Shown piece after piece: positions 5,351 through 64,000 of a DNA stretch of 64,000 nt. Both the position numbers and the translations under genes were made by a program. The notes beneath the pieces were generated by a model. It saw only the letters and a list, made by a program, of their open reading frames with translations, was not told the origin of the DNA and ran no database searches. The number at the start of each line of letters is the position of its first letter. Position 1 is the first letter of the stretch. The DNA comes from Myxococcota bacterium (lineage in GTDB: Bacteria > Myxococcota > JAJVIH01), in contig JAJVIH010000018.1 in NCBI GenBank assembly GCA_022072125.1, positions 27,868 to 91,867 on the forward strand, in the 5' to 3' direction.

Positions 5351-6121
5351 ATGAAGCCCGTTGCAATCACCCTGTTCGCGCTGGCCTGCGTTTTCGCGGG
5401 ATGCAAGCGCGCCGAAGCCCCCACCGCCGCCAGCGACGGCGTCATCAAGGTGGCGGCGCCCGCCAGTTCCGCTTCCGCCATGACCCCCGGCGAAGCGGAG
5501 GAAAAACATCCCGCGCCAGCCACTTTCACCTCGGCCGGCAGACCGGAAGACCTGCTGGTGGACGCCAAGGATTTGCCCACCGTCAAGGATGTGGATTTTT
5601 CCGGCCTGACCGGCCCCGCCGAACCCTTCGCGCGCATGATGCGCTCGCTGGGCGAAGGCGACGTGCGGGCGGTGGTGGAATCCTACGCGAAGGCGCGGCG
5701 GGCGACCGTGCCCACCGAGAGGCTGGCGAGGCAACTGGGCGATCCAATGAACCTGCGGCTGCTGAATTTCGTGCTGGGCATGGCCCGCATCGAGGCCCGC
5801 AACGTCAACGTCAATGGCGACAAGGCGGAATGGACGCTGGTGGCGCGCGTGCCCGATTTGCAGAAGCTGCAACAGAACCGGGAACTGATCCGCAAATACG
5901 GCGTGGACCTGGATCAGAAACCTCCCGAAGACGGCGACGATCAGGCCAAAATGGCGTTCGCCCTGAAAAGGGAAGTGGAACTGGTGCGCGTGACCGGCAA
6001 GATCGTCAAGGAAAATCCGGACGCCATCCCGTGGGAGCAGAAAGAAGTGCCCGTGCGGAGCATCAGGGAGGATGGACACTGGCTGCTTGATCTGGATTAC
6101 AACGAGTCCCGGATCAAATAG
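5351..6121 (+). CDS. Hypothetical lipoprotein
   Basis: Signal peptide with lipobox (LFALACVFAGC). AGGAA RBS upstream. No recognisable catalytic motifs. Confidence 0.5.
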   Translation: MKPVAITLFALACVFAGCKRAEAPTAASDGVIKVAAPASSASAMTPGEAEEKHPAPATFTSAGRPEDLLVDAKDLPTVKDVDFSGLTGPAEPFARMMRSLGEGDVRAVVESYAKARRATVPTERLARQLGDPMNLRLLNFVLGMARIEARNVNVNGDKAEWTLVARVPDLQKLQQNRELIRKYGVDLDQKPPEDGDDQAKMAFALKREVELVRVTGKIVKENPDAIPWEQKEVPVRSIREDGHWLLDLDYNESRIK

Positions 6122-11725: not shown

Positions 11726-11854
11726 CCCACCTTCATCCCAGGGGTTCGCCTGGTTCTTGCAAACCCGTCCCGGGCGCGGGAACGGCTTTTGCCCGCTTGA
11801 CCGTCACCTCCCTCCCGGCGCCCCGGCGTGGGGAGGGGGACAAGAACACGCCGC

Positions 11855-14800: not shown

Positions 14801-16042
14801 GGGATGGCGGATTTCCACCCCCATGCGTCCCTTCTGATCCCGGGTGATGACCTGATCCGCGCCGTTGACGTTGGCGCGTCCCAGCAGCAGGCCCGGCGCG
14901 CCGGAGAGCCGCCACTCGGTGTGCATGCTGCCGGAGATGGCGTCGCGCGCGGTGAAGCCGCCGCCCTCGAAATCCAGCCAGAGTTCGCGGGTCAGGTTGA
15001 ACTGGTTGGGCGCGGGATCGGAATTGCCCCGGCGCAATACGTCCAGGGTCATTTTTTCGCCGGGGGCCAGGCGGTAGGCGGGAAATCCGCGCCACTCCGC
15101 AGGCAGCCGGGTCTGGTTGGCGTCAACCGGCGCCGGACTGGTGATATTGACCACGCGATTTTCGGGAACGGTCTGAAAGGCCCAGATTTCTTCCGGGGCC
15201 CAGTCGCCCTGCCCGGGAGGAAAACTGATGGACCGGGTTTCCGCGCCGTAACGGGTGACGAGGGTGATCGTCCAGGTTCCCGGCCGCACCTGCAGGCGCA
15301 GGCGTCCGTCGGTTTCAATGCGCGCAGGCACGGGCGAGTTCAGGCTGACCGGCACATGAGACTTGTCCACCGGCGGCGCCAGCAATATCTCCCGCGCCTC
15401 GCCGGCGGCCCGCAGTTCGATGCGCGTGGTCACCTGCAGCGGATTGTCGTCAAGCACATGGCGGAAGACATCAATCTCCAGGGTGTTTTCCACCGCGACG
15501 GGGGTCTCCTCGCGGGAGAGCCACAGGAATCCCTCGGGATCGCGGTGTGGAAAGGGAGCGGGTCTGCCGTTGATCTCCAACGCCAGCAATCCCACTGACA
15601 GCGGCGCGAAGAGTTTTTCCGGGGCTCGCTCCCACGCAAAACGCCCGCTGATGACATAAGCGCCGGGCGGCAGCCAGATGACCGGAGTATCGCCGTTGTC
15701 CACCACCGCGCCCTGCGCGCCATTGACCTTCACGTCCAGCGGCCAGTGGTCGCGATCACCAGGCAGGCGCACCGGCGATCGTGCATAAACGGACACCGGA
15801 TATTCAAACACCGCTCCCTTGCCGGAGGTCTTGATCTCCAGCCGGGCCGGCCACACACATTCGCGGACAGCGGCGTCTTCCCCCGGCAATGACGGGCAAC
15901 GCATGGCCTCGTGGCCATCCAGCACCCAGGGAATCCAGCTTTTCAGCGGGTCCGGAACCTGTTCCCGCGGAAGCGGTCCCGCGGCGGCCGTGGCGGCCGA
16001 CAACATCAATACCGCCGCCGCGGCGAATGGTTTTACGGTCAT
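11855..16042 (-). CDS. Very large (1395 aa) membrane protein with internal duplication: two [signal/anchor - ~450 aa extracytoplasmic domain - 4 TM] modules and a Pro-rich C-terminal tail
   Basis: N-terminal signal peptide (AAAAVLMLSAATAAAG). TM cluster at aa ~640-740. Second anchor-like segment (LALLLGLLIALARSL...AMLIVFTFSAGGARAQ) and second TM cluster at aa ~1200-1360. The two soluble halves share motifs (C..C near the start; HW.P..V.VNG ... WLP.G..V..GR). Ends PPPPPAVPPPPVPE. Confidence 0.6.
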   Translation of the reverse strand: MTVKPFAAAAVLMLSAATAAAGPLPREQVPDPLKSWIPWVLDGHEAMRCPSLPGEDAAVRECVWPARLEIKTSGKGAVFEYPVSVYARSPVRLPGDRDHWPLDVKVNGAQGAVVDNGDTPVIWLPPGAYVISGRFAWERAPEKLFAPLSVGLLALEINGRPAPFPHRDPEGFLWLSREETPVAVENTLEIDVFRHVLDDNPLQVTTRIELRAAGEAREILLAPPVDKSHVPVSLNSPVPARIETDGRLRLQVRPGTWTITLVTRYGAETRSISFPPGQGDWAPEEIWAFQTVPENRVVNITSPAPVDANQTRLPAEWRGFPAYRLAPGEKMTLDVLRRGNSDPAPNQFNLTRELWLDFEGGGFTARDAISGSMHTEWRLSGAPGLLLGRANVNGADQVITRDQKGRMGVEIRHPSFNVQAESRIEGETSAIPSTGWDHDFQRVSATLHLPPGWSALHISGADDVPRTWMRSWTLLDLFLVLVAALAMTRLWGKARGALALAVLVLTFQEPGAPQWIWIALIITEALARYLPAGGLRVAGNLARAGCWLVLLALALPFVVRQGRQAMYPALGSSSGYGDGWSFHVPLGGMAAMQDKAAAPMEEENFQQNAAPAAPPPSPAQDAVQGMIDGKDAGINSFRSDLSDMGGRGKAAPQRSSNLYKGVQRKNRMYQNDPNANVQTGPGLPAWSWQSIAIQWNGPVEKTEQLRLWLAPPWLNSLLSWARLALLLGLLIALARSLTRKTGPSAPAPAPAVSAAAAAMLIVFTFSAGGARAQMPDSATLDQLRERLLRPEACSPNCASIESMELNAQADSLRLNLRVHMAAGAAIALPGGAGHWTPDSVTINGEHNPAMMRDGRGHLLLWLPQGSHAVVMEGRLPGKDAVQLPLPLPPARVTAQAQGWLVAGIRENGRPDGELQLQRVREKKMDSAAPMESSDVPPFVRVTREISLDLQWQVETTVERLNDSSVSAVLAVPLLPGESVTTADLQIQDRKVRVNLTPQQSSVTWTSVLERKEVMELIAPRDVGWSEVWRVSAGPVWHVGAEGIPEAINNQGGEYVWQPWPGEKVKLAITRPEGVPGQTLTILKSHQNVTPGDRVTEVVLTLSMRASLGGQHIIALPEGARALSMSVSGKVLPVHQDGVKLTIPVSPGQQEVVAKLEVPNAISFRYETPRISLETPSVNGSIGFATPRNRWPLWLSGPRLGPAILYWSFLLVLAIISLLLGRIPWIPMRARHWFLLGVGLSQSASAGALVLAGWFLVLGAKRKFAARIPDGAYPLVQILIGCLTFAAAGVLLFAIKEGLLGFPDMHIQGNGSYDTHLNWYQDRMASALPSAVLISAPLWLYRALMLLWALWLARSVIDWARWGFQGFVDGGLVIRPPAAPRSPPPPPAVPPPPVPE

Positions 16043-28599: not shown

Positions 28600-29301
28600 C
28601 TATTTCAGCCGGTCCGCGGCCTCTTTGAGTCTGGCGGAACAGCCGCTGGTGACCGGTTCCCCGTGGGCCACGATGACGGCTTTCCAGTCCTCGCGCCTTG
28701 ACTGATCCTCCAGCCACTGGCGGTAGCGGGCGCGATCCTGCAACAGAAACATTTTCCCAATCGGCGTCATGCCGAAGTATCCCACCACGCGCATGATATT
28801 GCGCTGGAACCAGTTGCCTTCCTTCAGGTGAAACAGGCAGTCGCACACCACCAGGGCCTTGCCGCCGTCCACATCCAGTTCGTAGGCCAGTTCGATGGGT
28901 TTGACGCCATCAATGGCGATGGCGCGCACGCCCATGCCGCCGTTCTTGAAAACATCCTCGCAATGACCATCCACCTGAACCACCTCGCGCACGAATTTGT
29001 CCGACCCCTTCGGGCACAGCACCCGGATATCCGGGTAGCGTTTCTTGTAGCGCGGCGCATCGAGCCGATGATAGCGGGTGGGAACAATCATGATGCTGGG
29101 CTTGCCCAGCTTTTCCATGGCCGCCATGGCTTCATCCGTCATGGCGATGGCGCTGTGGATGAGCAACCCGCCATCGCGCATGCGGTAGATCACCATATTG
29201 CGGGGCAGCGGCATGTTTTTCAGCGCGCCCGTCACCACCCACAGGTTGGATGCGAGGGGGGCGATGCCGCCATGCGGCGAAATTCCATCGGTCCAGGCCA
29301 T
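28600..29301 (-). CDS. Hypothetical protein (DUF4336-like)
   Basis: Intact 233-aa ORF, NLWVVTGAL...LLIHSAIAMTDE...IMIVPTRYHRLDAP. No motif I can assign with confidence. The family call is from memory and weak. Confidence 0.4.
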   Translation of the reverse strand: MAWTDGISPHGGIAPLASNLWVVTGALKNMPLPRNMVIYRMRDGGLLIHSAIAMTDEAMAAMEKLGKPSIMIVPTRYHRLDAPRYKKRYPDIRVLCPKGSDKFVREVVQVDGHCEDVFKNGGMGVRAIAIDGVKPIELAYELDVDGGKALVVCDCLFHLKEGNWFQRNIMRVVGYFGMTPIGKMFLLQDRARYRQWLEDQSRREDWKAVIVAHGEPVTSGCSARLKEAADRLK

Positions 29302-48326: not shown

Positions 48327-48551
48327 TCAGGAAACCTTGTAAACCTCCCCCGAAGGATCATCCGGAGCGCCTTCCGGAATATCCCGGGTGAAAGTGACGA
48401 ACGCCATGGCCGGACGCTTGGAGGTGTCCCGCATGGCGAAGTGGATCCCCTCAAAATTCCAGCCCTGGGAGACAAATTCGTTGACGATCTGCTCCAGGGT
48501 TTCATCGGTGACGGTGCTGGTTTCGACAAATTTGAATTTCAGCATGGTCAC
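48327..48551 (-). CDS. Small DUF4177-like protein
   Basis: 74-aa [42 protein letters not shown]. 4-nt overlap with the upstream cobA-hemD gene. Confidence 0.4.
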   Translation of the reverse strand: MTMLKFKFVETSTVTDETLEQIVNEFVSQGWNFEGIHFAMRDTSKRPAMAFVTFTRDIPEGAPDDPSGEVYKVS

Positions 48552-50095
48552 TCCTTGCGCCGCTGCACGGCGCGAACCAGGGCCTCGACCAATCCCTGGA
48601 GGGTGCTTGGATGGGCTTCGGCCGCCGGCTCAACCCCCAGTTCACGAAGGGTCTCGCTGGTGACCGGACCAATGGACACCGCCCGGATCGGCGCATCCTC
48701 GGGGTCATGACCCCGGCGCACAAGCAGGTCCATGAAATTGCGGGCCGTCGAGGAGGAGGTGAACAGCGCCCATGTGTGGGGATCATCCGCCGCCTGCTCA
48801 AAGGCGTCCAGATCAAACTCCGGCTCCACGTTCTGGTACAGCACCAGTTCGTGGACGTGATGGCCCGCCGCCTTCAGTCCTTCCGGAAGGGTGCGGCTCG
48901 CTTCCCGGGCCTGAAACAACCACAGATTGGCGGGGGATTGCAGCCGCCCGATCAATGCTTTCAACACCCCTTCGCCGCGGAAGTCCTCGCCGGGCAACAG
49001 GTCGGCGATCAGTCCCGTGTGTTCCTTGAGCGCGCGCGCGGTGGAGGGTCCCACCGCCGCGGTCAGGCAGCCCGCGAAGGCGCGAATATCCCTGCCCATG
49101 GCTTCCAGCAGTTCGGCGGTGCGGCGCGCGCCGTTGGGACTGGTCCACACCAGCACATCGCCGGGGCGGATGGCGTTCAGGGCCTGCTCCATGGCCTCGC
49201 GCGCGGGGATGGGCTGAATCTCGATGGCGGGCATGCGCAACACCTGGGCGCCCAGTTCCTCCACCATCCCCGCCAATTCGCTGGCCTGACCCGCCGCGCG
49301 GGTGATGATCACCCGCTGTCCAAACAATGGTTTGCCCGTGAACCAGTTCTCGAAACCCTCCACAGCCGCCACCGCGCCAATCACAATCATGGCGGGCGAG
49401 TCTATTCCGGCGCTTTCCATGCGCGCGGGAAGATCAGCGGCGGCGCACCGGAGTTGGCGTTGTCCGGGCTGGGTTCCCCGTTCCACGCAGGCCGCCGGAG
49501 TGGCGGGGTCCAGGCCGCCATCAATCAGTTCGCGCACGATATCGCCGCAGCGGGACACCCCCATGTACACGCACAATGTCGCCCGCAGCCGGGCCAACAG
49601 CCGCCAGTCCACCGCGCTGTCCTGCTTGGCGGGGTCTTCATGTCCGGTGACAAAGACCACCATCGAAGTCAGGTTGCGGTGGGTCACCGGAATGCCCGCG
49701 TACGCCGGGGCGGCCGCTCCGGAGGTGACCCCGGGAACCACCTCGCAATGCAGGCCCGCCGCGGTCAGGGCGATCATCTCCTCGCCGCCGCGCCCGAAGA
49801 CGAAAGGATCGCCGCCCTTGAGCCGCACCACGATCCGGTTGGTGCGCCCGTACTCGATCAACATGTCCGTGATGTCGTCCTGACCGGTTTTGAAGCGGCC
49901 CGCCGACTTGCCGGCGAAAACGCGGTCGCATTCCGGGGGCAGCAAATCCAGCAGCGCGGGGTGGACCAGGTGATCGTAGATGCAGACTTCCGCCGCGCCC
50001 AGCAGTTGCGCGCCGCGCAGGGTGATGAGGCCGGGATCGCCGGGCCCGGCCCCGACCAGGTATACCCCCGGAACAAATTTGCGGCGTTCGTTCAT
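48548..50095 (-). CDS. cobA: Bifunctional uroporphyrinogen-III C-methyltransferase / uroporphyrinogen-III synthase (CobA-HemD fusion)
   Basis: N-terminal SAM-MTase motifs [18 protein letters not shown]...[17 protein letters not shown]-terminal HemD-like half. Start moved to MNERRKF (GGAAG RBS); the upstream 83 codons are Arg/Ser-rich noncoding. Confidence 0.8.
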
Positions 50096-50216
50096 CTTCC
50101 GCGCACTATGCCGGAGCGGGGGCTTCTTGCAAGCGGACGCGCGGCGCGTTAATCGGCGGGGCGGGCAAGCCCTTGGGCGTGAACCGCCAGGAACAGCCCG
50201 TTCACAGGAAACCAGC

Positions 50217-51506
50217 ATGTCATTTCCCCCCGTCGAAGAACAGATGGAGTTGCTGCTGCGCGGAACCACCCATGTGCAGGTGGAGCAGGAACTGTGCGAG
50301 CGCCTGAAGGAAAGCCGCGAACAGAACCGTCCCCTGCGCGTCAAGGCCGGGTTTGATCCGACCGCGCCGGATTTGCACGTGGGCCATGTGGTCCTGCTCC
50401 AGAAGATGCGCCAGTTCCAGGACCTGGGTCATCAGGTGATTTTCCTGATCGGCGATTTCACCGGGCGTATCGGCGACCCGACCGGCCGCTCGGAAACCCG
50501 CCGCCAGCTTACGGAAGAGGAGGTCGCCGCCAACGCCGAAACCTACCGCCAGCAGGTGTTCAAGGTGCTGGACCCCGCCCGCACCACCGTGGATTTCAAC
50601 TCCCGGTGGATGAACGCCATGAAGCCGCCGGAAATGGTGCGGCTGGCCGCCTGTTACAGCGTGGCGCGCATGCTGGAGCGCGACGATTTCAAGAAACGCT
50701 TCCGGGATGGGCAGTCCATCAGCATCCATGAGTTTCTCTATCCGCTGGTGCAGGCCTACGATTCGGTGGCGCTTCAGGCGGACGTGGAATTGGGCGGCAA
50801 TGACCAGCTTTTCAACCTGCTGATGGGCCGGACCGTGCAGAAGGAATACGGACAGCGCCCGCAGATTGTCCTCACCACGCCGCTGCTCATCGGCACCGGC
50901 GGGCGGATGGCGGATGGAGTGATCACCGGCGACAAGATGAGCAAATCGCTCGGCAATTACATCGGAATCAACGAAGAACCCGATCAGATCTTCGGCAAGA
51001 CCATGTCCATCTCCGATGAACTGATGTGGGAGTATTTTGTCCTGCTGTCCCGCCGCTCGCTGGCGGAGATCGAAGAGATGAAGCAGTCGGTTGCACGGGG
51101 GGCCAATCCGCGCGACTTCAAGGCGGCGCTGGCCGGGGAGTTGGTCTCCCGCTTCCATGGGGAAGCGGCGGGCAAGGCCGCCCGGGAACGGTTCGACAAT
51201 CTGTTCCGCCAGAAACAGGCGCCCAGCGACATGCCCGTGGTGCGCGCCGCCGCCACGCCGGACGGCGTGCTGCTGGCCCGCCTGCTCAAGGACGCCGGAC
51301 TGACGGAATCCGCCGGGGAGGCGCGCCGCATGTTCCAGCAGGGCGCCGTGCGCATCAATGGCGAGAAGGCGGCGAATGAAAACCTGCGGCTGGCGCCGGG
51401 CGAATACGTGGTGCAGGTGGGCAAGCGCCGGTGGGCCAAAATCGTGGTGGAGCAGGATCCACCAGAGTCCCGCGCCGCGCCGGGAAGAGAGCCGCCGGAT
51501 GGTTGA
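50217..51506 (+). CDS. tyrS: Tyrosyl-tRNA synthetase (short bacterial form with S4 domain)
   Basis: HIGH (DLHVGH) and KMSKS motifs. C-terminal S4-like [14 protein letters not shown]. Start at MSFPPVEE. Confidence 0.85.
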
Positions 51507-54115: not shown

Positions 54116-55183
54116 ATGGCGCAGAACAATGACGGCGCTCCACTGACCTACCGGTCGGCGGGGGTGGATATCCACAAGGGCGACGAGGTGGCGGACGCCG
54201 CCGGACGCCTGGCCCGATCCACGCTCACGCCCTGGGTGGTGTCTGGCGTGGGCGGATTCGCGGGTCTGTTCCGCTTTGATCCCGCCCGGTATCCCGAACC
54301 GGTGATGGCCGCCTGCACCGATGGCGTGGGCACCAAGCTGCTGGTGGCGCTGGCGGCGGGCCGGCACGACACCATTGGCGTTGATCTCGTGGCCATGAAT
54401 GTCAACGACCTGATCGTGTGCGGCGCCGAGCCTCTGGCCTTTCTCGATTATTTCGCCACCGGCGGCCTGGACGCCGCGCAGGCGGAGGCGGTGCTGACCG
54501 GTATCGCCGGGGGTTGCCGCCAGGCGGGCTGCGCGCTGATCGGCGGGGAAACAGCGGAAATGCCGGGCATGTATCCGCCGGGAAAATATGATCTGGCGGG
54601 TTTCGCGGTGGGGGTGGTCAACCGGCCGGACATCATCAATGGGTCCAGGGTTTCCGCCGGAGACACCATCATCGGGCTGCCCTCCAGCGGCCTGCATTCC
54701 AACGGTTATTCACTGGCGCGCAAAATCGTGTTTGAACGCCTGGGCCTGCAGGCCGGCTCCATTTGGTTTGACGGCAAGACCGCTGGCGAACTGCTGCTTG
54801 CCCCCACCCGCATTTACGTGCGCACGGTGCTGGAGCTGATCCGCAAGGTCCCCGTCCACGCCATGGCCCATATCACTGGCGGCGGATTGCCGGGCAACCT
54901 GATCCGCGCCTTTCCCCAAGGCTTGTCCGCAAGGGTTCGCCGCGGCGCCTGGCGTCCGCCGGAGATATTCCTTCGCCTGCAAGAGGCGGGATCGGTCCCT
55001 GCACCGGACCTGTGGGATACCTTCAACATGGGCATCGGATACTGCTTCGTGGTTCCCGCCGCCGCCGCGGACGCCGCAATCTCCGCCCTGTCCGGGCTGG
55101 GCGAGCAACCCATTCTGATTGGCGAGGTATTCGCCAGCCCGGGCGAGCCCCGGGTGGAGTTTGATCCGCCGCTGGGTCCATGA
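54116..55183 (+). CDS. purM: Phosphoribosylformylglycinamidine cyclo-ligase (AIR synthetase)
   Basis: LTYRSAGVDIHKGDE..., GGFAGLF, DGVGTKL, NVNDLIVCGAEPLAFLDY. Co-linear with PurM. Confidence 0.9.
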   Translation: MAQNNDGAPLTYRSAGVDIHKGDEVADAAGRLARSTLTPWVVSGVGGFAGLFRFDPARYPEPVMAACTDGVGTKLLVALAAGRHDTIGVDLVAMNVNDLIVCGAEPLAFLDYFATGGLDAAQAEAVLTGIAGGCRQAGCALIGGETAEMPGMYPPGKYDLAGFAVGVVNRPDIINGSRVSAGDTIIGLPSSGLHSNGYSLARKIVFERLGLQAGSIWFDGKTAGELLLAPTRIYVRTVLELIRKVPVHAMAHITGGGLPGNLIRAFPQGLSARVRRGAWRPPEIFLRLQEAGSVPAPDLWDTFNMGIGYCFVVPAAAADAAISALSGLGEQPILIGEVFASPGEPRVEFDPPLGP

Positions 55184-56103
55184 ATCCGTCGCGGTCCAGC
55201 AGATCAGGGGAACGGGGATGGGGCGGTCTGATGCGCCTGTGGCCGTGGCCCATTGGGCTGGTCCTTCTGTATTATACGATTCTCTACCGCCCCGGTTCGC
55301 TGGAATGGGAGCGCGTGCTGAACGATCTGGCGCCGGAAGTGCAGGCCGGAGACCTGGTGATTACCGCGCCGGTGCAATCCTTCCGCTCGATTGTCAATGT
55401 GCCCGATCTGCCGCTGATGGCCCCCATCCATGGCCAGTATTTCGACACCCGCGGCCTGCGGAAAATCTGGCAGGTGTCGGACCGCGGGGTCACTCCGGGG
55501 ATGATCCCCAATTCCATCAACCCGGCGGGACATGGGGGGTGGATGGTGACCGCGCATCCCTACGAAGGCAGGCGGGTCCGCGAACAGGGAAATCTGGTCA
55601 TCACGGAATTTGAGCCGCCCAAACACCGCCTGGGTGAACACCTGCGGGAACTCGTGGTGGAGGTGGAACAGTCCCCCGGCGGGCCCTGGAGCCAATGTCT
55701 GGAGTACAACGGCAAATACCATTGCGGGACGGCGCCCTGGCATTATGTGGGCGAGACGTTCATCCCCGTGCATGAACAGCAGACCCAATGCATCTGGGCG
55801 CATCCCTACGCGGGCCGGAACCTGCGGATCCGCCATCCGGAATGGCCCCTGAGCAAGCGGTTTTTCCTGTATACGATGTTCGGCGATCCGGCGACGCGCG
55901 GCGATATCGCCGCGCCGGTCCGCCTCACCATCCGGGTGGGGAATTACATCCGGCGGGAAATCCTGCATCACCCTTTTCCGGGAACCCGCGTCCATGTGCT
56001 GGAGATGCCGGAAGAAGAAACCCCGGCGTCCGCTCCGCTGATCATTGACGTATTCAGCGAGCGCGAAGGCAAGGCGCATTTCTGCTTCGCGCTGGAGAAC
56101 TGA
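55180..56103 (+). CDS. Hypothetical membrane-anchored protein (N-terminal TM, Cys/His-containing soluble domain)
   Basis: Probable start at MRLWPWPIGLVLLYYTIL (nt 55231). Overlaps the purM stop and the downstream GT-C gene, suggesting an operon. Confidence 0.45.
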   Translation: MNPSRSSRSGERGWGGLMRLWPWPIGLVLLYYTILYRPGSLEWERVLNDLAPEVQAGDLVITAPVQSFRSIVNVPDLPLMAPIHGQYFDTRGLRKIWQVSDRGVTPGMIPNSINPAGHGGWMVTAHPYEGRRVREQGNLVITEFEPPKHRLGEHLRELVVEVEQSPGGPWSQCLEYNGKYHCGTAPWHYVGETFIPVHEQQTQCIWAHPYAGRNLRIRHPEWPLSKRFFLYTMFGDPATRGDIAAPVRLTIRVGNYIRREILHHPFPGTRVHVLEMPEEETPASAPLIIDVFSEREGKAHFCFALEN

Positions 56104-57901
56104 ATTGCGCGCGCGCGGACTGGAAATCCTGCTGATCAGCGGACTGATATTCGCCTACGGGTGGTTTCATCCGTTTTTCCCCATATCCGCCAATCCCAAC
56201 GAGATCACCCGCTTTTACATGACCCGCGCCCTGGTCCAGCGCGGCGAACTGAAGATTGACGAGGAATTCGCCCGTTATGGCGTGTCGCTGGATCGCTCCC
56301 GCTACAACGGCCATTACTACAGTGACAAGGCGCCCGGGCTATCCCTGCTGTCGGTTCCGTTTTACTGGGCCTACGAACAGTGGCGCGGCAAGCCGGAAAC
56401 CTGGTCCATCCCCCCCTGGGAAGACGATGAACGCCTGGAGTTTTCCGCCCGCGCCTCGCTGAAGGAAGTGTCGCCCGCCATCCGCTTTCTCAAGTGGCCG
56501 GTGATTATCGTTCCTTCCATCCTGCTTTCGCTGATGGTGTTCGCCGCCCTCGCCGGACTGATTCAGTCGCGCGTGCTGGCGCTGTCCCTGACGCTGGCCT
56601 ACGGGCTGGGCACGGTGGCTTATTCCAACAGCCTCATCCTGTTCAGCCACCAACTCACGGCTGCGCTGCTGTTTGGCGCCTACCTGTGCCTGAGGCGGGG
56701 TCTGGATCGCGACAACCCCTGGTGGTTCGTCCCGGCGGGCGCCTGCGCGGGCATGACCCTGATGGTCGAATTTCCACCCGCGATTCCCATTTTCCTGATG
56801 GGCGTTTACGCCATCGCGGTGTTGAAGAAACGCTTCCTCCGCCTTCTGCCCTATCCGCTGTTCGCGGCGCCCTTCATCGCCGGGCTGCTCTATTACCACT
56901 ACCTGGCGTTCGATAACCCGTTCTCCACAGGCTACTCCCACTTGGAGGAGGAAACCTTCACCCAGGTCCACAATCAGGGACTGTTGGGCATCACCCTTCC
57001 AGATCACATCGCCTTCTTTGGCATGTTCTTCGCTCCCCAACGCGGCATCCTGGTGTTCAGCCCCATGCTGCTCTTCGCCATTCCGGGATTCGTGGAAATG
57101 AAACGGCGCCGGTCTGTTCATTTCTGGCCGGTGACGCTGGTGTCGCTGGCTTTCTTCTACATCGTCAGTTCCTACCCGGTCTGGCATGGCGGCGGATGTG
57201 TCGGCATGCGGCACCTGACTCCGCTGATGCCCTTCCTGATGATCCCCACGGCGCTGGGCGTCCAGCGCCTGGCGGGAAGATCCACCCCCTGGTGGGGACG
57301 CGCCGCCGGCGGATTCATGCTGGCCGGGTGCCTGCTGACCATTGTTTCCACCGTGCCATTCCCCCACGCGGCCCTGTTGTACCGGATTCCCTTCCGCGAT
57401 CTGGGCGGCGAACTCTGGAGGTTGGGCTTTTTGCCGCCCAGCGCCGTCTCCGCCATGGGCATGGATGGTTATTCATCCGGCCTCTGGTATCTGGCGGGCG
57501 CCGCTCTGTTGTGCCTGGCGATGTTGATCGCACTCACGCGCTGGATGAGCAGCCGGGAAACGGCGGGAAGCGTTCCTGAAAACGCCGGATGGATGGTCCT
57601 GATTGGTTCGCTGATCCTGCTGATCTGGTTTGTCTCCTTCCCGGATTTCCGCGCATATGATCGCTTCAACGACAGCCGGTTGATCATGCGGCAGTACCAT
57701 CCGCAGCACCGCAATGTGTACAGCCGCTTCAACTGGCCCCCCACGGATGCGGATCTGAAACAACCCGCGTACTGGAGGGCGCGCGGACGCGAACGCACCG
57801 CCGTGCTCGATAACGGCGGCGCGCTGGATTTTTTCACCCACGCCCGTCAACTCGTGGAAAGCCCCGCCACCGGAACACCCGCCTTCGCGCCCTCTCCGTA
57901 A
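56045..57901 (+). CDS. Polytopic membrane protein, probable GT-C fold glycosyltransferase (ArnT/PMT_2-like)
   Basis: About 12 TM helices. First periplasmic loop carries YYSDKAPGLS, reminiscent of the lipid-carrier-binding loop of ArnT/PMT-type enzymes. The real start may be the TTG at 56105, after the upstream gene's stop. Confidence 0.5.
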   Translation: MTYSASAKARRISASRWRTELRARGLEILLISGLIFAYGWFHPFFPISANPNEITRFYMTRALVQRGELKIDEEFARYGVSLDRSRYNGHYYSDKAPGLSLLSVPFYWAYEQWRGKPETWSIPPWEDDERLEFSARASLKEVSPAIRFLKWPVIIVPSILLSLMVFAALAGLIQSRVLALSLTLAYGLGTVAYSNSLILFSHQLTAALLFGAYLCLRRGLDRDNPWWFVPAGACAGMTLMVEFPPAIPIFLMGVYAIAVLKKRFLRLLPYPLFAAPFIAGLLYYHYLAFDNPFSTGYSHLEEETFTQVHNQGLLGITLPDHIAFFGMFFAPQRGILVFSPMLLFAIPGFVEMKRRRSVHFWPVTLVSLAFFYIVSSYPVWHGGGCVGMRHLTPLMPFLMIPTALGVQRLAGRSTPWWGRAAGGFMLAGCLLTIVSTVPFPHAALLYRIPFRDLGGELWRLGFLPPSAVSAMGMDGYSSGLWYLAGAALLCLAMLIALTRWMSSRETAGSVPENAGWMVLIGSLILLIWFVSFPDFRAYDRFNDSRLIMRQYHPQHRNVYSRFNWPPTDADLKQPAYWRARGRERTAVLDNGGALDFFTHARQLVESPATGTPAFAPSP

Positions 57902-57978
57902 ACATCACGGTTCTCACGACGCCCTGATTGAACGCCCCGCTCTTGCCACCCGGCGCGCCGCTCTGGCATGGTGATCCC

Positions 57979-59898
57979 ATGCTCCGGCTGACGTTGCATT
58001 TTGGCCTCTCCAACCAGCATTCCGTGGAATTTCAATCCGGCGAGGTGATGATCGGGCGCAAGCCCCATTGTTCCATCGCCATTGTGGACCCCCGTATCTC
58101 CGGCCAGCACGCCCGGCTGTACCTGCAAGGGTCTGACTGGATTTTTGAAGACCTGTTTTCCACCAATGGTTCGATGATCCACCGGTCGGGGCAGCGCACG
58201 GTGGTGGCTCCAGGGGCGCCTGGGCGGCAGAAAATCCTGACCGGCGACGAACTGCTGCTCGGCGATGCGGACACGCCCATCGTCATCCGGGTGGACGAAG
58301 CCGCCGCCGGCGAAACCCCGTCTCCGGCGCGTGAAACCGTGGTGGCGGTGCGCGCTCTCAAGCCTACGTTTGAACTGCCCCCCCGGGTTCGCGAGGACGG
58401 GGCCGCGCTGCGCGACCTGTGCCAGTTCATGGGCGAACAGGCGCGCACCTCCGAACTCGCCGATCAGTTCGTGGGGCTCTTTCGCTTTTTCCAGAAACGC
58501 TTCAGCGGGGATATCTGGTTTTACGCTGCGCTCCGCGATTTCCCCCAGGGCGAGTTCCGCAAGGCGTTCAGCCGGTCCTCCTCGGGCAAGGAGCCGGCGG
58601 ACGGCGCGCCGCCGTCCCTGCGCGAGCGGCTGCTGTCGGAGAAACAGGCCATCCTGCTCAAGGAGACCCGCGGCGCCCAGCAGTCCGAGCCGGCCGCCGC
58701 CAGCGGGGTGGACTCCATCATGGCCGCCCCATTGATGGACCACGCGGGGAAGGTATTCGGGCTGTTCCTGCTCAGCCGCCGCGGCAGGGAATTCGACGAG
58801 GCCGATCTTGCCCTGTTCGCCGCCGCCGCCGCCCATGCGGGATCGACCTTTGAAACCATCCGCCTGGTGGATGAATTGAAGGCCGCCCGCGAACAACTCT
58901 CCGCCAGCAACAAGACCCTTCTGCAGGATATCGCCAAATCCCGGAGCGCTCCCCTGCTGATTGGCGAGAGCCCCGCCATCCGCAAGGTGCTGAAGGCGTC
59001 GGACGCCGTGGCTGGGTCCGATTCCACCGTGCTCATCCAGGGGGAAACCGGCGTGGGCAAGGAGGTGCTGGCCCGGCATATTCATGGCCGGTCCGCCCGC
59101 GCCGATCGCTACTTCGCCGCGGTCAACTGCGGCGCGCTGACCGCCACCCTGCTGGAAAGCGAACTCTTCGGCCATGTCAAGGGCGCCTTCACCGGCGCCA
59201 CCAGCAACAAGAAGGGGTATTTCTCCATCGCCAATCACGGCACGCTGTTCCTGGATGAAATCGGCGAAATTCCCCTGCAGCTTCAGGTCAAGCTGCTGCG
59301 CGTGCTCCAGGAAGGCGAGTTCTGGCCGGTCGGCGCCGACAAGCCCGAGACCTGCGACGTGCGCATCCTCGCCGCCACCAATCGCGTGCTGGAAACCGAA
59401 GTCAAGGAAGGGCGCTTCCGCGAGGACCTGTATTTCCGCCTCAATGTCTTTCCGATTCGCGTACCGCCGCTGCGGGAAAGACAGGAGGACATTCCTTTGC
59501 TGGTCAACCACCTGCTGGAGCGCCTGCGCGAACGCCATCCCAACGCACCGCAAAAACTGACCGAGCGCGCCATGGCCTGTCTGTGCGCCTTCCCCTGGCC
59601 GGGAAATATCCGCCAGCTTTCCAACGAACTGGAACGCGCCTGCCTGCTCAGCGGCCACTCCACCCATATTGACGTGGACGCGCTGTCTCCCGAAATCGCC
59701 GGCGAAGACGACCCCGATGTGGTCACCGTGGACGGCACCGGGCGCGAAACCCTCAAGGAAACCATGCGCCGCCTGGAAAAGGGCGTCATCAAGCGGGCTC
59801 TCGACGAGCACCACAACAACAAGACCGCCACCGCCCGGGCGCTGGGCATTTCCCGGCAGGCCCTGCTGCTCAAGATCAACATGCTTGGCGTGGATTGA
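57979..59898 (+). CDS. Sigma54-dependent transcriptional activator with N-terminal FHA domain and GAF-like domain (FHA-GAF-AAA+-HTH)
   Basis: FHA core (VMIGRKPHCSIAIVDPRISGQHARL...GSTNGSMI). AAA+ sigma54-interaction domain (GETGVGKEV...GAFTGA...EGEFWPVG). C-terminal Fis-type HTH (TATARALGISRQALLLKI). The large - strand ORF 57847..60516 is its shadow. Confidence 0.85.
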   Translation: MLRLTLHFGLSNQHSVEFQSGEVMIGRKPHCSIAIVDPRISGQHARLYLQGSDWIFEDLFSTNGSMIHRSGQRTVVAPGAPGRQKILTGDELLLGDADTPIVIRVDEAAAGETPSPARETVVAVRALKPTFELPPRVREDGAALRDLCQFMGEQARTSELADQFVGLFRFFQKRFSGDIWFYAALRDFPQGEFRKAFSRSSSGKEPADGAPPSLRERLLSEKQAILLKETRGAQQSEPAAASGVDSIMAAPLMDHAGKVFGLFLLSRRGREFDEADLALFAAAAAHAGSTFETIRLVDELKAAREQLSASNKTLLQDIAKSRSAPLLIGESPAIRKVLKASDAVAGSDSTVLIQGETGVGKEVLARHIHGRSARADRYFAAVNCGALTATLLESELFGHVKGAFTGATSNKKGYFSIANHGTLFLDEIGEIPLQLQVKLLRVLQEGEFWPVGADKPETCDVRILAATNRVLETEVKEGRFREDLYFRLNVFPIRVPPLRERQEDIPLLVNHLLERLRERHPNAPQKLTERAMACLCAFPWPGNIRQLSNELERACLLSGHSTHIDVDALSPEIAGEDDPDVVTVDGTGRETLKETMRRLEKGVIKRALDEHHNNKTATARALGISRQALLLKINMLGVD

Positions 59899-60084: not shown

Positions 60085-61482
<1,398 letters not shown>

Positions 61483-61678
61483 CCAGCGATTGATGCATGT
61501 TCCGGCGATCCCCGCGCGCGGAATGGCGGCATCCCGCGCCGGGAGCCCTCGACGGCGTTGAACTTGCCCGCAGAGCATAACAGGCTCCGGTCTTGATCCG
61601 CCGGGCCGCCTGGACACCGCCCAGCAAGGGAGGAAGCCCCACGGAAAACCGGTGTGAACAGCAAACTTCGCTAGCGCC

Positions 61679-61738
61679 ATTGAACCTGAACAAGTGAACT
61701 GGCAAAATGCTGGTCTCACGCCGGAGTTCAACTTCAAA
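61679..61738 (+). promoter_or_regulatory. Operator-like element: three direct TGAAC repeats overlapping a candidate promoter, with an inverted GTTCA ~27 nt downstream, upstream of the exonuclease-ligase operon
   Basis: TTGAAC c TGAAC aag TGAAC tgg CAAAAT ...(27 nt)... GTTCA ac TTCAA. Reads as TTGAAC - 17 nt - CAAAAT. Lower-GC stretch ~60 nt upstream of the ATG at 61763. Confidence 0.35.
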
Positions 61739-61762
61739 ATTCCCGGCGTCTGACTGGCATCC

Positions 61763-62746
61763 ATGGACCTCGTGATTCCCCACCCGCGCGGACTGTACTG
61801 CCCGCCGGGAGATTTTTTCATTGACCCGCGCCGCGGCGTGCAGACCGCCGTGATCACCCACGCCCACTCCGACCATGTGGCGCCCGGAAGCGGCGGTTAT
61901 ATCTGTTCATCGCGTTGCGCCCCCCTGGTGCGCCAGCGCATTGGCGCCCGTTTCAACATCCGGCCCGTGGAATACGGAGAAAAATTCCGGCTGGGCGGAT
62001 GCTGGGTGTCGCTGCATCCCGCTGGACATATCCTGGGTTCGGCGCAGGTGCGCATCGAATGGCGGGACGAGGTCTGGGTGGTGTCGGGAGATTACAAACG
62101 CGATCCCGACCCATCCTGCGAGCCCTTTGAAGTGGTCGCCTGTGATGTCTTCATCACCGAAACCACCTTTGGTTCGCCGCTCTACCAATGGCGTCCTGGC
62201 GAGGAGATCGCCAGGGAAGTGCTGGCTTGGCGCGGGCAGGCGCGGGAGTGCGGGCGGAACTGCATTCTCTATTGTTATTCCCTGGGCAAGGCCCAGCGCC
62301 TGCTGGCCGAACTGGGGCGGCTGGACGCCGGCGTTGTGTATCTCCATGGCGCCCATCTGGCCCCCACCATCGCCTACCATGAGATGGGGATTCCCATGGC
62401 GAAATTCCAACTCGCCGGCGACGCCTCGAAACGTGAACTGATTCAGGGCGAACTGGTGCTGGCGCCGCCCAACGCGCGCGGAACCAAATGGGAGGCCAGC
62501 CTGGGCGAATGTGAAACCGCGTTCGCCTCCGGGTGGATGGCCCTCGCCAACGCCCGCCGCAACAAGGGCTACGACCGCGGCTTTGTCATCTCCGACCATG
62601 CAGACTGGAACTCGCTGCTGCGCACCATCCGCGAAACCGGCGCCCGGCGCGTCATCGCCATGCATGGCGACGCGGCGGCCCTGGTGCAAACCCTGCGCGA
62701 ACAGGGGTTGCAGGCGGAAGAACTGGCGGAAGCCCGCGCGGTCTGA
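61763..62746 (+). CDS. Ligase-associated DNA damage response exonuclease (metallo-beta-lactamase fold)
   Basis: MBL signature VITHAHSDHV, downstream His/Asp ligands (HPAGHILGS, SGDYKRD, ...HGD). Immediately followed (5-nt gap) by an ATP-dependent DNA ligase gene. Confidence 0.7.
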   Translation: MDLVIPHPRGLYCPPGDFFIDPRRGVQTAVITHAHSDHVAPGSGGYICSSRCAPLVRQRIGARFNIRPVEYGEKFRLGGCWVSLHPAGHILGSAQVRIEWRDEVWVVSGDYKRDPDPSCEPFEVVACDVFITETTFGSPLYQWRPGEEIAREVLAWRGQARECGRNCILYCYSLGKAQRLLAELGRLDAGVVYLHGAHLAPTIAYHEMGIPMAKFQLAGDASKRELIQGELVLAPPNARGTKWEASLGECETAFASGWMALANARRNKGYDRGFVISDHADWNSLLRTIRETGARRVIAMHGDAAALVQTLREQGLQAEELAEARAV

Positions 62747-62751
62747 AAGCC

Positions 62752-64000
62752 ATGGATGCGCTGGTTCAATTGGTTCGCGCGCTCGAAGGCCTTGGCGATC
62801 CCGCGCGCAGAATCGAGGCGCTGGCGCGCGCATGGAGGGCGTCCGCTCCTGCCTGCTCCGCATGGATGCTGTCGCTGCTGACAGGACGGCGACCGCGCCG
62901 TCTCGTGAACCCGGAAGACCTGCTCCCGGAAAGCGCCCGCGCCGCGGGCATGGCCCCATGGCTGTTTGAAGATTGCATCCGCCGCTCCGGAGATATCGCC
63001 GAGGTGATCGCGCTGACCTGCCGTCAGGAAGCGGGCGTCACCGGGGAAATCCCGCTGGAGCGCTGGATGGAGAACGAGTTTCCGATCATGCGGGCCCTGC
63101 CGCCCGGGGAGCGCGCCTCCAGGCTGATGGAATGGCGCCGGCGCGCGCCCCGGGAACATCTGCTCATTCTCAACCAGTTGGCGTGCGGAACCTTCCGGCT
63201 TGCCGCCGCACGGAATGAACTGGCGGCGGCGCTGCGCCAGGTTCTGGGAGTTCCCGCCCCGCTGCTGGCCTGGCGCCTGATGCAGGACTGGACGCCATCG
63301 GCGGATTTCTGGCGTGCGCTTGGCGATCCCGCTGGTGGTGATGTGGAGTTGACCCGTATTCCGGAGACCAGCGTCCCAATGGAAATCCGGTTGAACGATC
63401 TGGCGGAAGAGAATGCGGACAACTGGCAGGCCTTCTGGGTTCCCCGTGGCGAATCAGCGCAACTCATCCGGCGCCGCGGCGGTACGCTGCTGTGGCGGAT
63501 GGAGGAACAGGACTGGATGATCTGCCCGGATGAACTGGAAGCGGCGGCGCGGAACCTCCCTGACCGGACCGTGCTGCTGGGCGTCGTCGAAAACGGCGAG
63601 GCGGCCAAGCCGGCCAGGAAGAACACTTCCCGCAAGCCCGCGGACGAGACGGATATCCGCTTCATCGCGATGGATATCCTGGAATGGAAGGGTGAAGACA
63701 CCCGGCTATCGCCATTCGCCGATCGCCGCATGCAACTGGACCAGTCGCTTGGCGGCGCTGGCGCCCTGACGCCGCAAGCAGCCATTCCCGCCAGCGGGTG
63801 GAACGAACTGACCATGGCGCACCGCCAGTCACGGGCGCGGGGCTATCGCGGTCTCGACTTGCGGCGGCGGCAGGATGGCGGCGAATGGTTCCGTTGTCTG
63901 GCGGACCCGCTGGTGTTTCACTGCGTGCTGACCTCGTACCGGCAGGAGTCCTGGAGCGAGGAAGCGGAATTGACCTTCGCGGTTTGGGACGGCAGGGGTC
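62752..64000 (+). CDS. ATP-dependent DNA ligase, ligase-associated (cisplatin-damage-response type), 3' truncated by the window edge; catalytic motifs appear degenerate
   Basis: Open frame from the ATG at 62752 to the window end. Absent from the ORF track because there is no stop. N-terminal DNA-binding-domain-like region (HLLILNQLACGTFRLA). Adenylation-domain landmarks (SVPMEIRLNDL..., IRFIAMDILEWKGEDTRLSPFADRRMQL). At the expected motif I (E-x-K-x-D-G-x-R) the sequence is FWVPRGES. Confidence 0.6.
   Translation, partial: MDALVQLVRALEGLGDPARRIEALARAWRASAPACSAWMLSLLTGRRPRRLVNPEDLLPESARAAGMAPWLFEDCIRRSGDIAEVIALTCRQEAGVTGEIPLERWMENEFPIMRALPPGERASRLMEWRRRAPREHLLILNQLACGTFRLAAARNELAAALRQVLGVPAPLLAWRLMQDWTPSADFWRALGDPAGGDVELTRIPETSVPMEIRLNDLAEENADNWQAFWVPRGESAQLIRRRGGTLLWRMEEQDWMICPDELEAAARNLPDRTVLLGVVENGEAAKPARKNTSRKPADETDIRFIAMDILEWKGEDTRLSPFADRRMQLDQSLGGAGALTPQAAIPASGWNELTMAHRQSRARGYRGLDLRRRQDGGEWFRCLADPLVFHCVLTSYRQESWSEEAELTFAVWDGRG

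Follow-up and report, generated by a model that had tools for sequence, protein, structure and literature searches.

A ligase-like protein without a ligase active site is encoded next to an intact MBL/beta-CASP exonuclease gene in a Myxococcota genome

Organization of the locus

The window, by which we mean the whole 64-kb stretch of DNA analyzed here, ends within a gene that runs beyond its boundary (Table 1). The part inside the window is 100% identical to a database protein of 510 amino acids from a Myxococcota metagenome-assembled genome (MAG), which supplies the full-length product; NCBI names it "hypothetical protein GMKNLPBB_01105", and we refer to it as P0001. Its reading frame has no stop in the 416 codons up to the window end, and the two other forward frames of the same segment (62752-64000) have 13 and 6 stops. 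GC content at codon positions 1, 2, and 3 is 0.70, 0.52, and 0.77, similar to that of the neighboring upstream gene (0.69, 0.50, and 0.77).

That neighbor encodes a ligase-associated MBL/beta-CASP exonuclease (here Exo), whose metal motifs (HAHSDH, HPAGH, SGDY, and SDHAD) are complete and do not vary in our alignment (A3). Its TGA stop lies 5 nt before the ATG of the ligase-like gene, with no terminator in between; an earlier reading of this DNA, made from the sequence alone, had correctly placed the gene after an MBL-fold exonuclease. The intergenic region 5' of Exo, which carries repeated words, is presumed to hold a putative promoter/operator of the exo-lig pair; no σ70-like site was found there, and a promoter/terminator scan of the exo-lig junction was uninformative.

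[quoted passage not shown] The proposal of the sequence-only reading that P0001 is retained in a damage-response operon holds as far as Exo is concerned, but neither the Lhr-Core helicase (TIGR04121) nor MPE/PdeM (TIGR04123) is encoded in the 62.7 kb upstream of the ligase gene; canonical clusters have Lhr and MPE downstream of the ligase, a side that falls outside the window for P0001. As to an intact ligase elsewhere, the 64-kb window contains neither a second ATP-dependent ligase nor LigA.

Table 1. Features of the exo-lig locus, in coordinates of the window
Feature	Coordinates	Strand	Remarks
Intergenic region 5' of Exo	61483..61762	.	280 nt; repeated GTTGAAC/GTTCAAC words (families D1, D3, I5)
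Ligase-associated MBL/beta-CASP exonuclease (Exo)	61763..62746	+	TIGR04122, 409 bits vs cut-off 325; intact
Degenerate LigB-type ligase homologue (P0001)	62752..64000	+	Codons 1-416 of 510; ATG 62752; gene exceeds window end
N-terminal alpha-helical DNA-binding domain	62752..63330	+	About residues 1-193; 12 helices in AF2 model, pLDDT mostly 85-96
Motif I remnant FWVPRGESAQLIRR	63433..63474	+	Residues 228-241; family consensus EWKWDGIRAQLIRR; K to V230, D to R, R to S
Motif III remnant VLLGVVE	63571..63591	+	Residues 274-280; family VLDGE to VLLGV, Asp to Leu, Glu to Val
Disordered loop	63598..63651	+	Residues 283-300, pLDDT <50; in place of family LPFxxLQRRIGRK, 10-aa deletion
Motif IIIa block IAMDILEWKGEDTRLSPFADRRMQL	63664..63738	+	Residues 305-329; family AYDLLE, P0001 AMDILE, kept
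Motif IV remnant RGLDLR, 7-aa deletion, motif V remnant	63847..63903	+	Residues 366-371 and 379-383

Family membership and predicted fold

P0001 aligns end to end with the NCBIfam model PRK09247 (E = 2.6e-62; residues 1-505 against positions 1-536 of 540) and with TIGR04120, scoring below the curated cut-off of each: 211.5 bits against 543 for PRK09247 and 160.7 bits against 400 for TIGR04120, compared with 735 and 654 bits for the canonical ligase P0002. None of the Pfam ligase domains PF01068, PF04675, and PF04679 matches P0001, even at E ≤ 1. By its profile similarity, which is far above chance, P0001 is a homologue of the LigB-type ("ligase-associated") ATP-dependent DNA ligases, and it shares with the cluster ligases of this type the three-domain architecture, homology from end to end, and a position directly after the MBL exonuclease. 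The ATP-dependent ligase landmarks recognized earlier (AQLIRRRGG, FIAMDILEWKGED, PFADRRMQL, VPRGES, and LLGVVENGE) are all present, and PRK09247 and the alignments specify the LigB type. One assignment made there needs revision: the segment SVPMEI, taken to be PMLA-like, exists but aligns with the family "PLE" just after PYPFxLA, while the PMLA-like element itself corresponds to IPETSV and is lost.

The AF2 model of P0001 (pLDDT 84) comprises DNA-binding, nucleotidyltransferase, and OB domains, and its best PDB matches in Foldseek are archaeal and human (Lig1) three-domain ligases (probability 1.0). A three-domain ligase fold is what the model predicts, but as evidence for retention of the fold it is weak because the prediction draws on an alignment of canonical ligases. 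A direct search of the window part of the protein against solved structures gave no match; the family profile found archaeal three-domain ligases as its best PDB relatives. The OB domain, which the window cuts off, is present in full-length P0001, and motif VI is degraded there too. Within the DNA-binding domain, residues W38, G45, W70, L71, G80, D81, A83, E84, G146, and R149 are conserved in the family and retained in P0001. The alignment reveals two in-frame deletions relative to the family, of 10 and 7 amino acids. P0001 has only five lysines in total, three of which (286, 290, and 295) lie in the disordered loop and none in the motif I strand.

Degeneration of the catalytic motifs

Motifs were placed with three independent multiple alignments of 18, 169, and 70 sequences, all concordant, and retention was scored at 15 catalytic positions and at a comparison set of 94 other family-conserved positions. 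P0001 keeps only 4 of the 15. In all three alignments its motif I core is VPRGES, where the family has KWDGIR, and its motif III reads LLGV, which bears out the claim that the adenylation lysine and other catalytic residues have been lost. The family's motif IV, EGLMLK, has become RGLDLR; motif V has gone from WWKWK to WFRCL, with replacement of both lysines, and motif VI from RFPRxxRWRxDK to VHARVVA-RAAI. The only residues kept in motifs III, IV, V, and VI are the Gly of motif IV and two Arg of motif VI. The G/Q/R residues following motif I are retained, as is the motif IIIa block, whose D308 and R325 are invariant even across 106 degenerate relatives.

Neither K.DG nor K.NG is encoded in any of the forward frames of 62752-64000, so a frameshift or local sequencing error fails to explain the motif loss. 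Because the AMP-accepting lysine and the residues of motifs I, III, IV, V, and VI are lost, P0001 should be unable to self-adenylate or to seal nicks, and we infer that it is catalytically inactive. Judged by its sequence, it resembles a pseudoenzyme in that essential residues have been lost from an otherwise complete homologue. Characterized LigB enzymes seal nicks alone (PMC7470946), which P0001, unlike them, should not do. A literature search found no description of dead or inactive LigB-type ligases.

Noncatalytic conserved positions have suffered as well (45 of 94 kept, versus 4 of 15; Fisher p = 0.17), and with that p value we dropped the idea that loss was targeted to the active site. 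By this count, relaxation spans the whole protein, strongly and beyond the active site. We have counted this global character of the degeneration against the explanation favored below; it is also expected of early decay.

Lysine-less relatives and their loci

P0001 has no close orthologue: nothing exceeded 37% identity among 15 billion proteins (the best match in an exhaustive HMMER search was 37%), a word-indexed search returned P0001 as a singleton cluster with the next match at 34%, and peptide-pattern scans of genome and metagenome contigs yielded no relative. The closest relative of the window Exo is ≤58% identical. Since neither protein has close relatives, the whole lineage is unsampled. 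Ligases of other Myxococcota are canonical in the 70-sequence alignment.

Whether orthologues share the K-to-V substitution can be answered only at a distance, given the 37% ceiling, but loss of the lysine itself recurs: 62 of the 169 LigB-like proteins that we collected lack it, and all 15 catalytic positions are present in just 54. P0001 is therefore not unique, and the expectation that such a protein would be unusual did not survive. The lysine-less proteins are full length, and most represent separate 50%-identity clusters; on this sequence evidence, lysine-less LigB-like proteins are common and recurrent in uncultured bacteria, in many independent assemblies. Loss in motifs III to VI varies among them, most being less degraded than P0001. 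They share 28 to 36% identity with one another, no higher than with canonical ligases, and no new motif, and a profile built from 106 degenerate proteins retrieved almost only canonical ligases. Most degenerate sequences cluster apart from the canonical ones in a neighbor-joining tree, in which long-branch attraction is possible. Their mutual identity is as low as that to canonical ligases, and a single coherent clade of degenerate ligases is at most tentative.

Exo lies directly upstream at all eight independent lysine-less loci examined, making nine of nine with the window gene. The eight upstream genes are positive with TIGR04122 or an Exo HMM and have intact metal motifs, and spacing to the ligase ranges from −4 to +187 nt, often overlapping or nearly abutting. 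P0029 (Gemmatimonadales MAG, HEX6617481.1) resembles P0001 in being lysine-less, full length, and directly preceded by Exo, but it differs in keeping 9 of the 15 positions and in passing the TIGR04120 cut-off (424 versus 400). Downstream of P0029 lie Lhr and PdeM, on the side that for P0001 falls beyond the window. P0288 (Gemmobacter sp. MAG, MDP2086076.1), P0022, P0033, and P0078 are likewise lysine-less and full length, with Exo directly upstream. The identity of these relatives to P0001, and among themselves, is only 28-34%. Lhr and MPE lie nearby at only one of the eight lysine-less loci versus 31 of 53 canonical loci; thus, the original pathway context has often been lost. Conversely, nine genomes, mostly cyanobacterial, have Exo without a ligase gene anywhere in the examined locus, so the ligase partner is dispensable in some lineages.

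Divergence and selection

Compared with 60 canonical loci, the window Exo is 51% identical, whereas P0001 is 30% identical (maximum, 34.6%) to the ligases of those loci. In the 919 canonical pairs whose Exo proteins are about as similar, ligase identity averages 48% with a minimum of 38.8%. P0001 has diverged about 18 identity points beyond the expectation from its Exo, and this comparison of aligned proteins shows that its divergence is accelerated relative to Exo. Without selection, the roughly 242 extra replacements would be expected to come with about 11 stop-creating hits, for a probability of an intact ORF of about 2e-5, a rough figure from which frameshifts are excluded.

Codon comparisons within two other lysine-less lineages show purifying selection that is relaxed but real. 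In the Gemmatimonadales lineage (EWLWVG), dN/dS is 0.19 (Sd 68, Nd 38; p = 5e-15 versus neutrality), and its Exo has 0.085; in the Gemmobacter-type lineage (AWHFGG, 4 of 15 positions), dN/dS is 0.34 (p = 0.0015), and its Exo has 0.125. For the P0001 gene itself, the ORF that has stayed intact despite such divergence, together with normal codon-position GC, is an indirect sign of probable selection as well.

Interpretation

We put at about 0.6 the probability that P0001 is the cluster ligase, degenerated in place and kept as a noncatalytic, probably DNA-binding, partner of the exonuclease. The active site of the cluster's own three-domain LigB-type ligase would have been dismantled, while the ORF was kept intact, normally coded, and in close translational coupling to the intact Exo gene. 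P0001 would then survive as a noncatalytic subunit, most likely as a DNA-binding or nick/end-recognizing scaffold that recruits, positions, or regulates Exo, a role that may extend to Lhr-Core/MPE where these are present; it would stand at the extreme of a large and recurrent group of Exo-paired proteins that lack the lysine. Conserved gene adjacency at nine of nine loci supports a link with Exo, and the partnership may be physical. The sequence-only reading had called P0001 an inactive paralog: the inactivity is supported by the sequence, but "paralog" is not, since P0001 stands where the cluster's own ligase belongs and therefore looks like the orthologous ligase.

The main rival, which we consider unlikely, is that the gene is a relic that has no function and is slowly decaying: once the ligase could be dispensed with, the whole protein came under relaxed selection, and the ORF has so far remained unbroken. 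Such decay would accommodate the survival of only 45 of 94 noncatalytic conserved positions, the two in-frame deletions, the disappearance of motif VI, and the status of P0001 as a singleton without orthologue; the nine Exo-only genomes and the canonical ligases of other Myxococcota both fit lineage-specific loss, and dN/dS in the other lysine-less lineages is two to three times that of their Exo. It is hard to square with a 510-codon ORF that is intact after some 242 extra replacements (probability of no stop about 2e-5, roughly estimated), an unchanged codon-position GC pattern, and the tight spacing retained with Exo. The collection of at least 62 full-length lysine-less proteins also weighs against it, as does dN/dS in two lysine-less lineages, where the values of 0.19 and 0.34 are significantly lower than 1. 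Less probable again is that P0001 was repurposed away from the exonuclease, as a regulator or as an RNA or protein binder, and sits next to Exo as a leftover of the ancestral operon. The lysine-less proteins have no new shared motif or demonstrated partner, and Lhr and MPE are with them at only one of eight loci, as this alternative would have it, but adjacency to Exo at nine of nine loci across very divergent genomes is difficult to explain without a functional link.

Persisting enzymatic activity is very improbable. P0001 would have to be an active ligase or nucleotidyltransferase in which the nucleophile or the cofactor site is noncanonical; candidates include K313 and the lysines of the 283-300 loop. 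It is true that a flexible loop in the nucleotidyltransferase domain contains lysines 286, 290, and 295, that K313 follows motif IIIa, and that neither motif IIIa nor the G/Q/R residues behind motif I have been lost; nevertheless, the nucleotide, metal, and step 1 contacts in motifs I, III, IV, V, and VI are all replaced, and the candidate lysines are not conserved among relatives. We know of no precedent in this superfamily for a nucleophile relocation of this kind. Even the derivation of P0001 from a MAG and its singleton status lend next to no probability to a sequencing, assembly, or binning artifact, in which frameshifts or chimeric joins mimic a degenerate protein: a single frame is open across 1248 bases, homology is continuous over residues 1-505, the other frames have multiple stops and no KxDG, the substitutions are scattered across five motifs, and similar proteins occur in many independent assemblies. 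The sequencing error or frameshift raised earlier as a way out is thereby rejected.

In many lineages, a ligase-shaped protein persists beside the exonuclease after loss of its active site, with purifying selection measured in two of them; this points to a noncatalytic role, for instance in recognizing DNA or in partnering the nuclease. More tentatively, and with some doubt on our part, lysine-less LigB-type ligases in general may be widespread, recurrently arising pseudo-ligases that supply the MBL/beta-CASP exonuclease with a clamp subunit or with one that recognizes DNA nicks or ends. Exo plus dead ligase would then be a two-gene module, often no longer coupled to Lhr and MPE, and a bacterial functional analogue of ligase IV-Artemis. 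Were this so, the cluster ligase would also have a structural, noncatalytic function in canonical systems. PDB entries 3w1g and 3w1b ("Human DNA ligase IV-Artemis complex") are among the fold matches of the P0001 model, and the likeness consists in a three-domain ATP-dependent ligase paired with an MBL/beta-CASP nuclease; in the human pair, the ligase DNA-binding domain binds the nuclease. The likeness is offered as an analogy only: human ligase IV is catalytically active, and no evolutionary link between the pairings is implied.

The relatives also carry a warning for annotation, because lysine-less proteins may pass TIGR04120, as P0029 does, and be named "ATP-dependent DNA ligase"; as a result, ligation capacity is overstated when accessory ligases are counted in metagenomes.

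The ligase-like gene and its neighbor

The ATG of the ligase-like open reading frame (ORF) lies 5 nt past the TGA of the preceding gene, and the frame stays open for 416 codons without a stop. The sequence-only reading had placed this gene after an MBL-fold exonuclease, and rightly so: the upstream product scores 409 bits against the NCBIfam model TIGR04122 (cutoff, 325), and its metal-binding and β-CASP signatures (HAHSDH, HPAGH, SGDY, SDHAD) are all intact. We refer to this ligase-associated MBL/β-CASP exonuclease as Exo. The window ORF is 100% identical to residues 1 to 416 of a 510-aa database protein, P0001 (NCBI name [quoted passage not shown]), which is encoded on a 105,981-bp contig; the C-terminal part beyond the window edge was read from that entry. 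Codon-position GC of the P0001 gene (0.70/0.52/0.77) follows the same pattern as that of its exo gene.

Both NCBIfam models for LigB-type ligases of bacteria ("cisplatin damage response" ligases) match full-length P0001: PRK09247 at E = 2.6e-62 (residues 1 to 505 on model positions 1 to 536 of 540) and TIGR04120 at E = 6.5e-47. This end-to-end match, with the alignments described below, confirms the earlier observation of a DNA ligase homologue with degraded motifs. Its scores fall far under the curated cutoffs (211.5 versus 543 for PRK09247; 160.7 versus 400 for TIGR04120), while the canonical relative P0002 reaches 735 and 654; no Pfam ligase domain was found in P0001, even at E ≤ 1. In the known repair cluster, a 3'-5' helicase (Lhr-Core) and a Mn-dependent ssDNA endonuclease (MPE) accompany the LigB-type ligase, which seals nicks autonomously, and Exo, which is uncharacterized (PMC7826289, PMC7470946, PMC10140301). 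Homology and gene position both tie the window gene to this ligase, but it fails the ligase's catalytic features and score cutoffs; we therefore class it as a degenerate derivative of a DNA ligase rather than as a DNA ligase.

Loss of catalytic motifs

Three independent MAFFT alignments (18, 169, and 70 sequences) agree on motif placement, and in each of them motif I lacks the adenylation lysine, as had been proposed: P0001 has FWVPRGESAQLIRR where the family has EWKWDGIRAQLIRR. The proposed loss of motif III is also borne out (VLLGV for VLDGE). Motif IV reads RGLDLR (family EGLMLK), motif V WFRCL (WWKWK), and motif VI VHARVVA-RAAI (RFPRxxRWRxDK); motif IIIa is kept (AMDILE; family AYDLLE). 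Of the 15 catalytic positions scored, four are left: the glycines of motifs I and IV and two arginines of motif VI. In-frame deletions remove two conserved segments (LPFxxLQRRI and SPYRVGR), and the PMLA-like element (family PYPFxLA) is itself missing; the segment SVPMEI, previously taken for it, is present but aligns just after it. P0001 has five lysines: three in a predicted-disordered loop (residues 283 to 300), K313, and K473, with none in the motif I strand.

A frameshift or local sequence error is ruled out as the source of motif loss, because all three forward frames of 62752-64000 are devoid of K.DG and K.NG, and 13 and 6 stops interrupt the two alternative ones. These results go against both refuting outcomes named in the sequence-only reading, a relocated Lys-x-Asp-Gly and a frameshift or sequencing error.

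In the superfamily to which these enzymes belong, the motif I lysine takes AMP, and motifs I, III, IIIa, IV, V, and VI form the nucleotide pocket and carry out step 1 chemistry. Given these roles, P0001 is very likely unable to self-adenylate or to seal DNA. The earlier interpretation thus stands as to inactivity, but its terms "paralog," "operon," and "unusual" require qualifying. The loss is also not confined to the active site: among noncatalytic positions ≥90% conserved in canonical ligases, P0001 has lost about half (49 of 94), a proportion that does not differ significantly from the one lost at its catalytic positions (Fisher P = 0.17). This counts against a tidy pseudoenzyme story.

An AlphaFold2 model of P0001 (alignment A1; mean pLDDT, 84.4) predicts helical N-terminal, nucleotidyltransferase-like, and OB-like domains. 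Foldseek searches of the PDB with this model return archaeal and human three-domain ligases (probability, 1.0), and the family profile matches three-domain ligase structures by sequence (e.g., 3rr5, E = 3e-77). Since the input alignment consisted of canonical ligases, the model is weak evidence for a retained ligase fold.

Relatives of P0001

P0001 formed a singleton cluster in a word-indexed search (next match, 34% identity), its best nonself match was 37% identical when 1.84 billion representatives were searched exhaustively with HMMER, and scans of genome and metagenome contig collections yielded no relatives. The window Exo likewise has no relative above 58% identity, so the source organism belongs to an unsampled lineage. 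The suggested comparison with orthologs carrying the same lysine-to-valine change accordingly lacks a close relative, but loss of the lysine itself recurs: among 169 LigB-like proteins (the best 150 HMMER matches plus those of the first search), 62 lack it, having L, Q, H, A, D, M, T, R, or other residues instead. All 15 catalytic positions are present in only 54 of the 169, and the rest are spread broadly, keeping 2 to 14. Degenerate LigB-like proteins are thus common in metagenomes, and P0001 is among the most degraded. A neighbor-joining tree separates most degenerate sequences from canonical ones; the degenerate proteins share 28 to 36% identity with one another, no more than with canonical ligases. 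Their grouping may reflect one old clade or many separate losses, with long-branch attraction possible.

Full-text literature searches turned up no account of LigB-type ligases that are catalytically dead, an absence that does not prove that none exists. The lysine-less P0029 (HEX6617481.1) passes the TIGR04120 equivalog cutoff (424 versus 400), and both it and the lysine-less P0288 (MDP2086076.1) carry the source name "ATP-dependent DNA ligase"; such naming poses a risk of systematic overannotation.

Genomic context

At the loci of eight independent lysine-less proteins (P0022, P0029/P0266, P0078, P0033, P0102, P0109/P0288, P0143, and P0059), an exo gene lies directly upstream of the ligase-like gene in every case, the two overlapping by as much as 4 nt or lying up to 187 nt apart. 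These Exos score 386 to 475 bits against TIGR04122 or 381 to 534 bits against a custom Exo HMM, and all have intact metal-binding motifs. Only the Gemmatimonadales locus L002 has Lhr (TIGR04121, 1,117 bits) and PdeM/MPE (TIGR04123, 219 bits) downstream. Between its ligase-like gene and Lhr is a 273-aa gene with no Pfam or NCBIfam match and a dN/dS of 0.35 between two variants, a possible additional member of the cluster.

As controls, we used 80 loci of species-representative genomes picked by their exo gene. Every Exo-adjoining ligase was canonical, nearly all keeping 15 of 15 positions and those of L007 and L024 keeping 14; lower counts occurred only where a contig end cut the gene. Ligases adjoining Exo in Myxococcus, Corallococcus, and Archangium are canonical. 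Among canonical pairs whose flanks were long enough, Lhr was nearby in 31 of 53, as opposed to 1 of 8 among the degenerate pairs (Fisher P = 0.022), although these samples are biased and not independent of one another. In nine of the species-representative genomes, most of them cyanobacterial, Exo occurs without a ligase anywhere in the fetched locus, indicating that the exonuclease can stand alone; Lhr is absent from all nine loci, and MPE from all except L053. In a Gaiellaceae metagenome-assembled genome, an otherwise canonical Exo-adjoining ligase is split into two ORFs, which suggests a frameshift, stop, or assembly error.

Selection and proposed role

We estimated dN/dS by the Nei-Gojobori method in two lysine-less lineages with sequence variants, using neighboring genes as controls. 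The Gemmatimonadales protein (motif I EWLWVG; 9 of 15 positions) gave 0.19 (68 synonymous and 38 nonsynonymous changes; binomial P = 5e-15 versus neutrality), compared with 0.085 for Exo, 0.09 for Lhr, and 0.13 for MPE. The Gemmobacter-type protein (AWHFGG), as degraded as P0001 at 4 of 15 positions, gave 0.34 (19 synonymous and 17 nonsynonymous; P = 0.0015), compared with 0.125 for Exo and 0 for two flanking housekeeping genes. These lysine-less homologues are therefore under real purifying selection, relaxed two- to threefold relative to their partners.

For the P0001 gene itself, the argument for selection is indirect, drawing on its GC pattern and on excess divergence with an intact ORF. 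The window Exo shares a mean 51% identity with the Exos of 60 canonical loci, while P0001 shares only 30% (maximum, 34.6%) with their ligases; among canonical pairs whose Exos are about as similar (n = 919), ligase identity averages 48% (minimum, 38.8%). The excess amounts to ~242 extra replacements. As stop-creating single-base changes in this gene number about 4.5% of amino acid-changing ones, neutrality would predict ~11 stops, and the probability of none is ~2e-5, a rough estimate that leaves frameshifts uncounted. The intact ORF thus argues against unconstrained decay.

We favor P0001 as a putative noncatalytic DNA-binding or nick/end-recognizing partner that would recruit or regulate the exonuclease. 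Despite the dismantled active site, the ligase scaffold appears to persist overall, as do conserved DNA-binding-domain residues, the motif IIIa region (where all 106 degenerate relatives compared retain D308 and R325), and tight linkage to an intact MBL/β-CASP nuclease. In human ligase IV-Artemis (PDB 3w1g and 3w1b, among the fold matches), a ligase DNA-binding domain holds an MBL/β-CASP nuclease, a likeness that is an analogy only and no evidence that the two interactions are homologous.

The main rival, slow decay without function, is a real if minor possibility: it would fit relaxation spread over the whole protein, the singleton status of P0001, and the existence of Exo-only genomes, but the intact ORF and the dN/dS values of analogous lineages speak against it. 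Repurposing without a link to Exo seems less probable still, given that Exo adjoins in nine of nine cases. That P0001 remains active through a relocated lysine is very improbable with so many other catalytic residues missing, and an assembly artifact we regard as the most remote explanation. Taken alone, P0001 is an extreme orphan case; the wider pattern of many lysine-less, Exo-adjoining homologues under purifying selection is testable and bears on the role of the ligase in a poorly understood repair cluster.

Other features of the window

Coordinates of the features discussed (window positions unless a locus is named)
Feature	Position	Strand	Remarks
ORF	5351-6121	+	Coding-like GC3; no Pfam match at E ≤ 1e-5
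ORF	11855-16042	-	As above
Repeat protein, 1,221 aa	18053-21718	+	Many HYDIN/ASH/DUF1573-type Ig-like repeats
ORF	28600-29301	-	Coding-like GC3; no Pfam match at E ≤ 1e-5
CysG/HemD-like gene	48548-50344	-	First-start call
Tyrosyl-tRNA synthetase (TyrRS) ORF	49980-51506	+	First-start call
ORF	55180-56103	+	Coding-like GC3; no Pfam match at E ≤ 1e-5
ORF	56045-57901	+	As above
Sigma-54 enhancer-binding protein	57928-59898	+	FHA-GAF-AAA+-HTH_8 (Pfam)
Sigma-54 enhancer-binding protein	60085-61482	+	Read as putative receiver-AAA+-Fis type
Repeated words, exo upstream region	61553-61758		GTTGAAC/GTTCAAC; direct family D1, 4 copies
Perfect 8-nt inverted pair	61557-61564 and 61725-61732		GTTGAACT/AGTTCAAC
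Imperfect 18-nt inverted repeat	61707-61760		
exo	61763-62746	+	TIGR04122
Ligase-like ORF	62752 to window end	+	P0001, residues 1-416
273-aa gene, Gemmatimonadales	L002:11534-12355 = L087:7534-8355		
Split ligase, Gaiellaceae	L066:11024-12638		ORFs 11024-11404 and 11427-12638
Exo-only loci	About 10001-11000 in most		L036, L037, L045, L050, L053, L054, L059, L075, L076

The genes of the two sigma-54 enhancer-binding proteins immediately precede the exo-lig pair. The 280-nt gap before exo yielded neither a sigma-54 nor a sigma-70 promoter. The repeats upstream of exo may be candidate operator sites. The ORFs without a Pfam match include a 1,395-aa protein and a 618-aa protein, the latter encoded immediately before the sigma-54 activators. 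An overlap of 365 nt joins the CysG/HemD-like gene to the TyrRS ORF; since the TyrRS Pfam match starts only at residue 115, the true start is probably further downstream. For the large 1,221-aa repeat protein, a surface or secreted location is probable.
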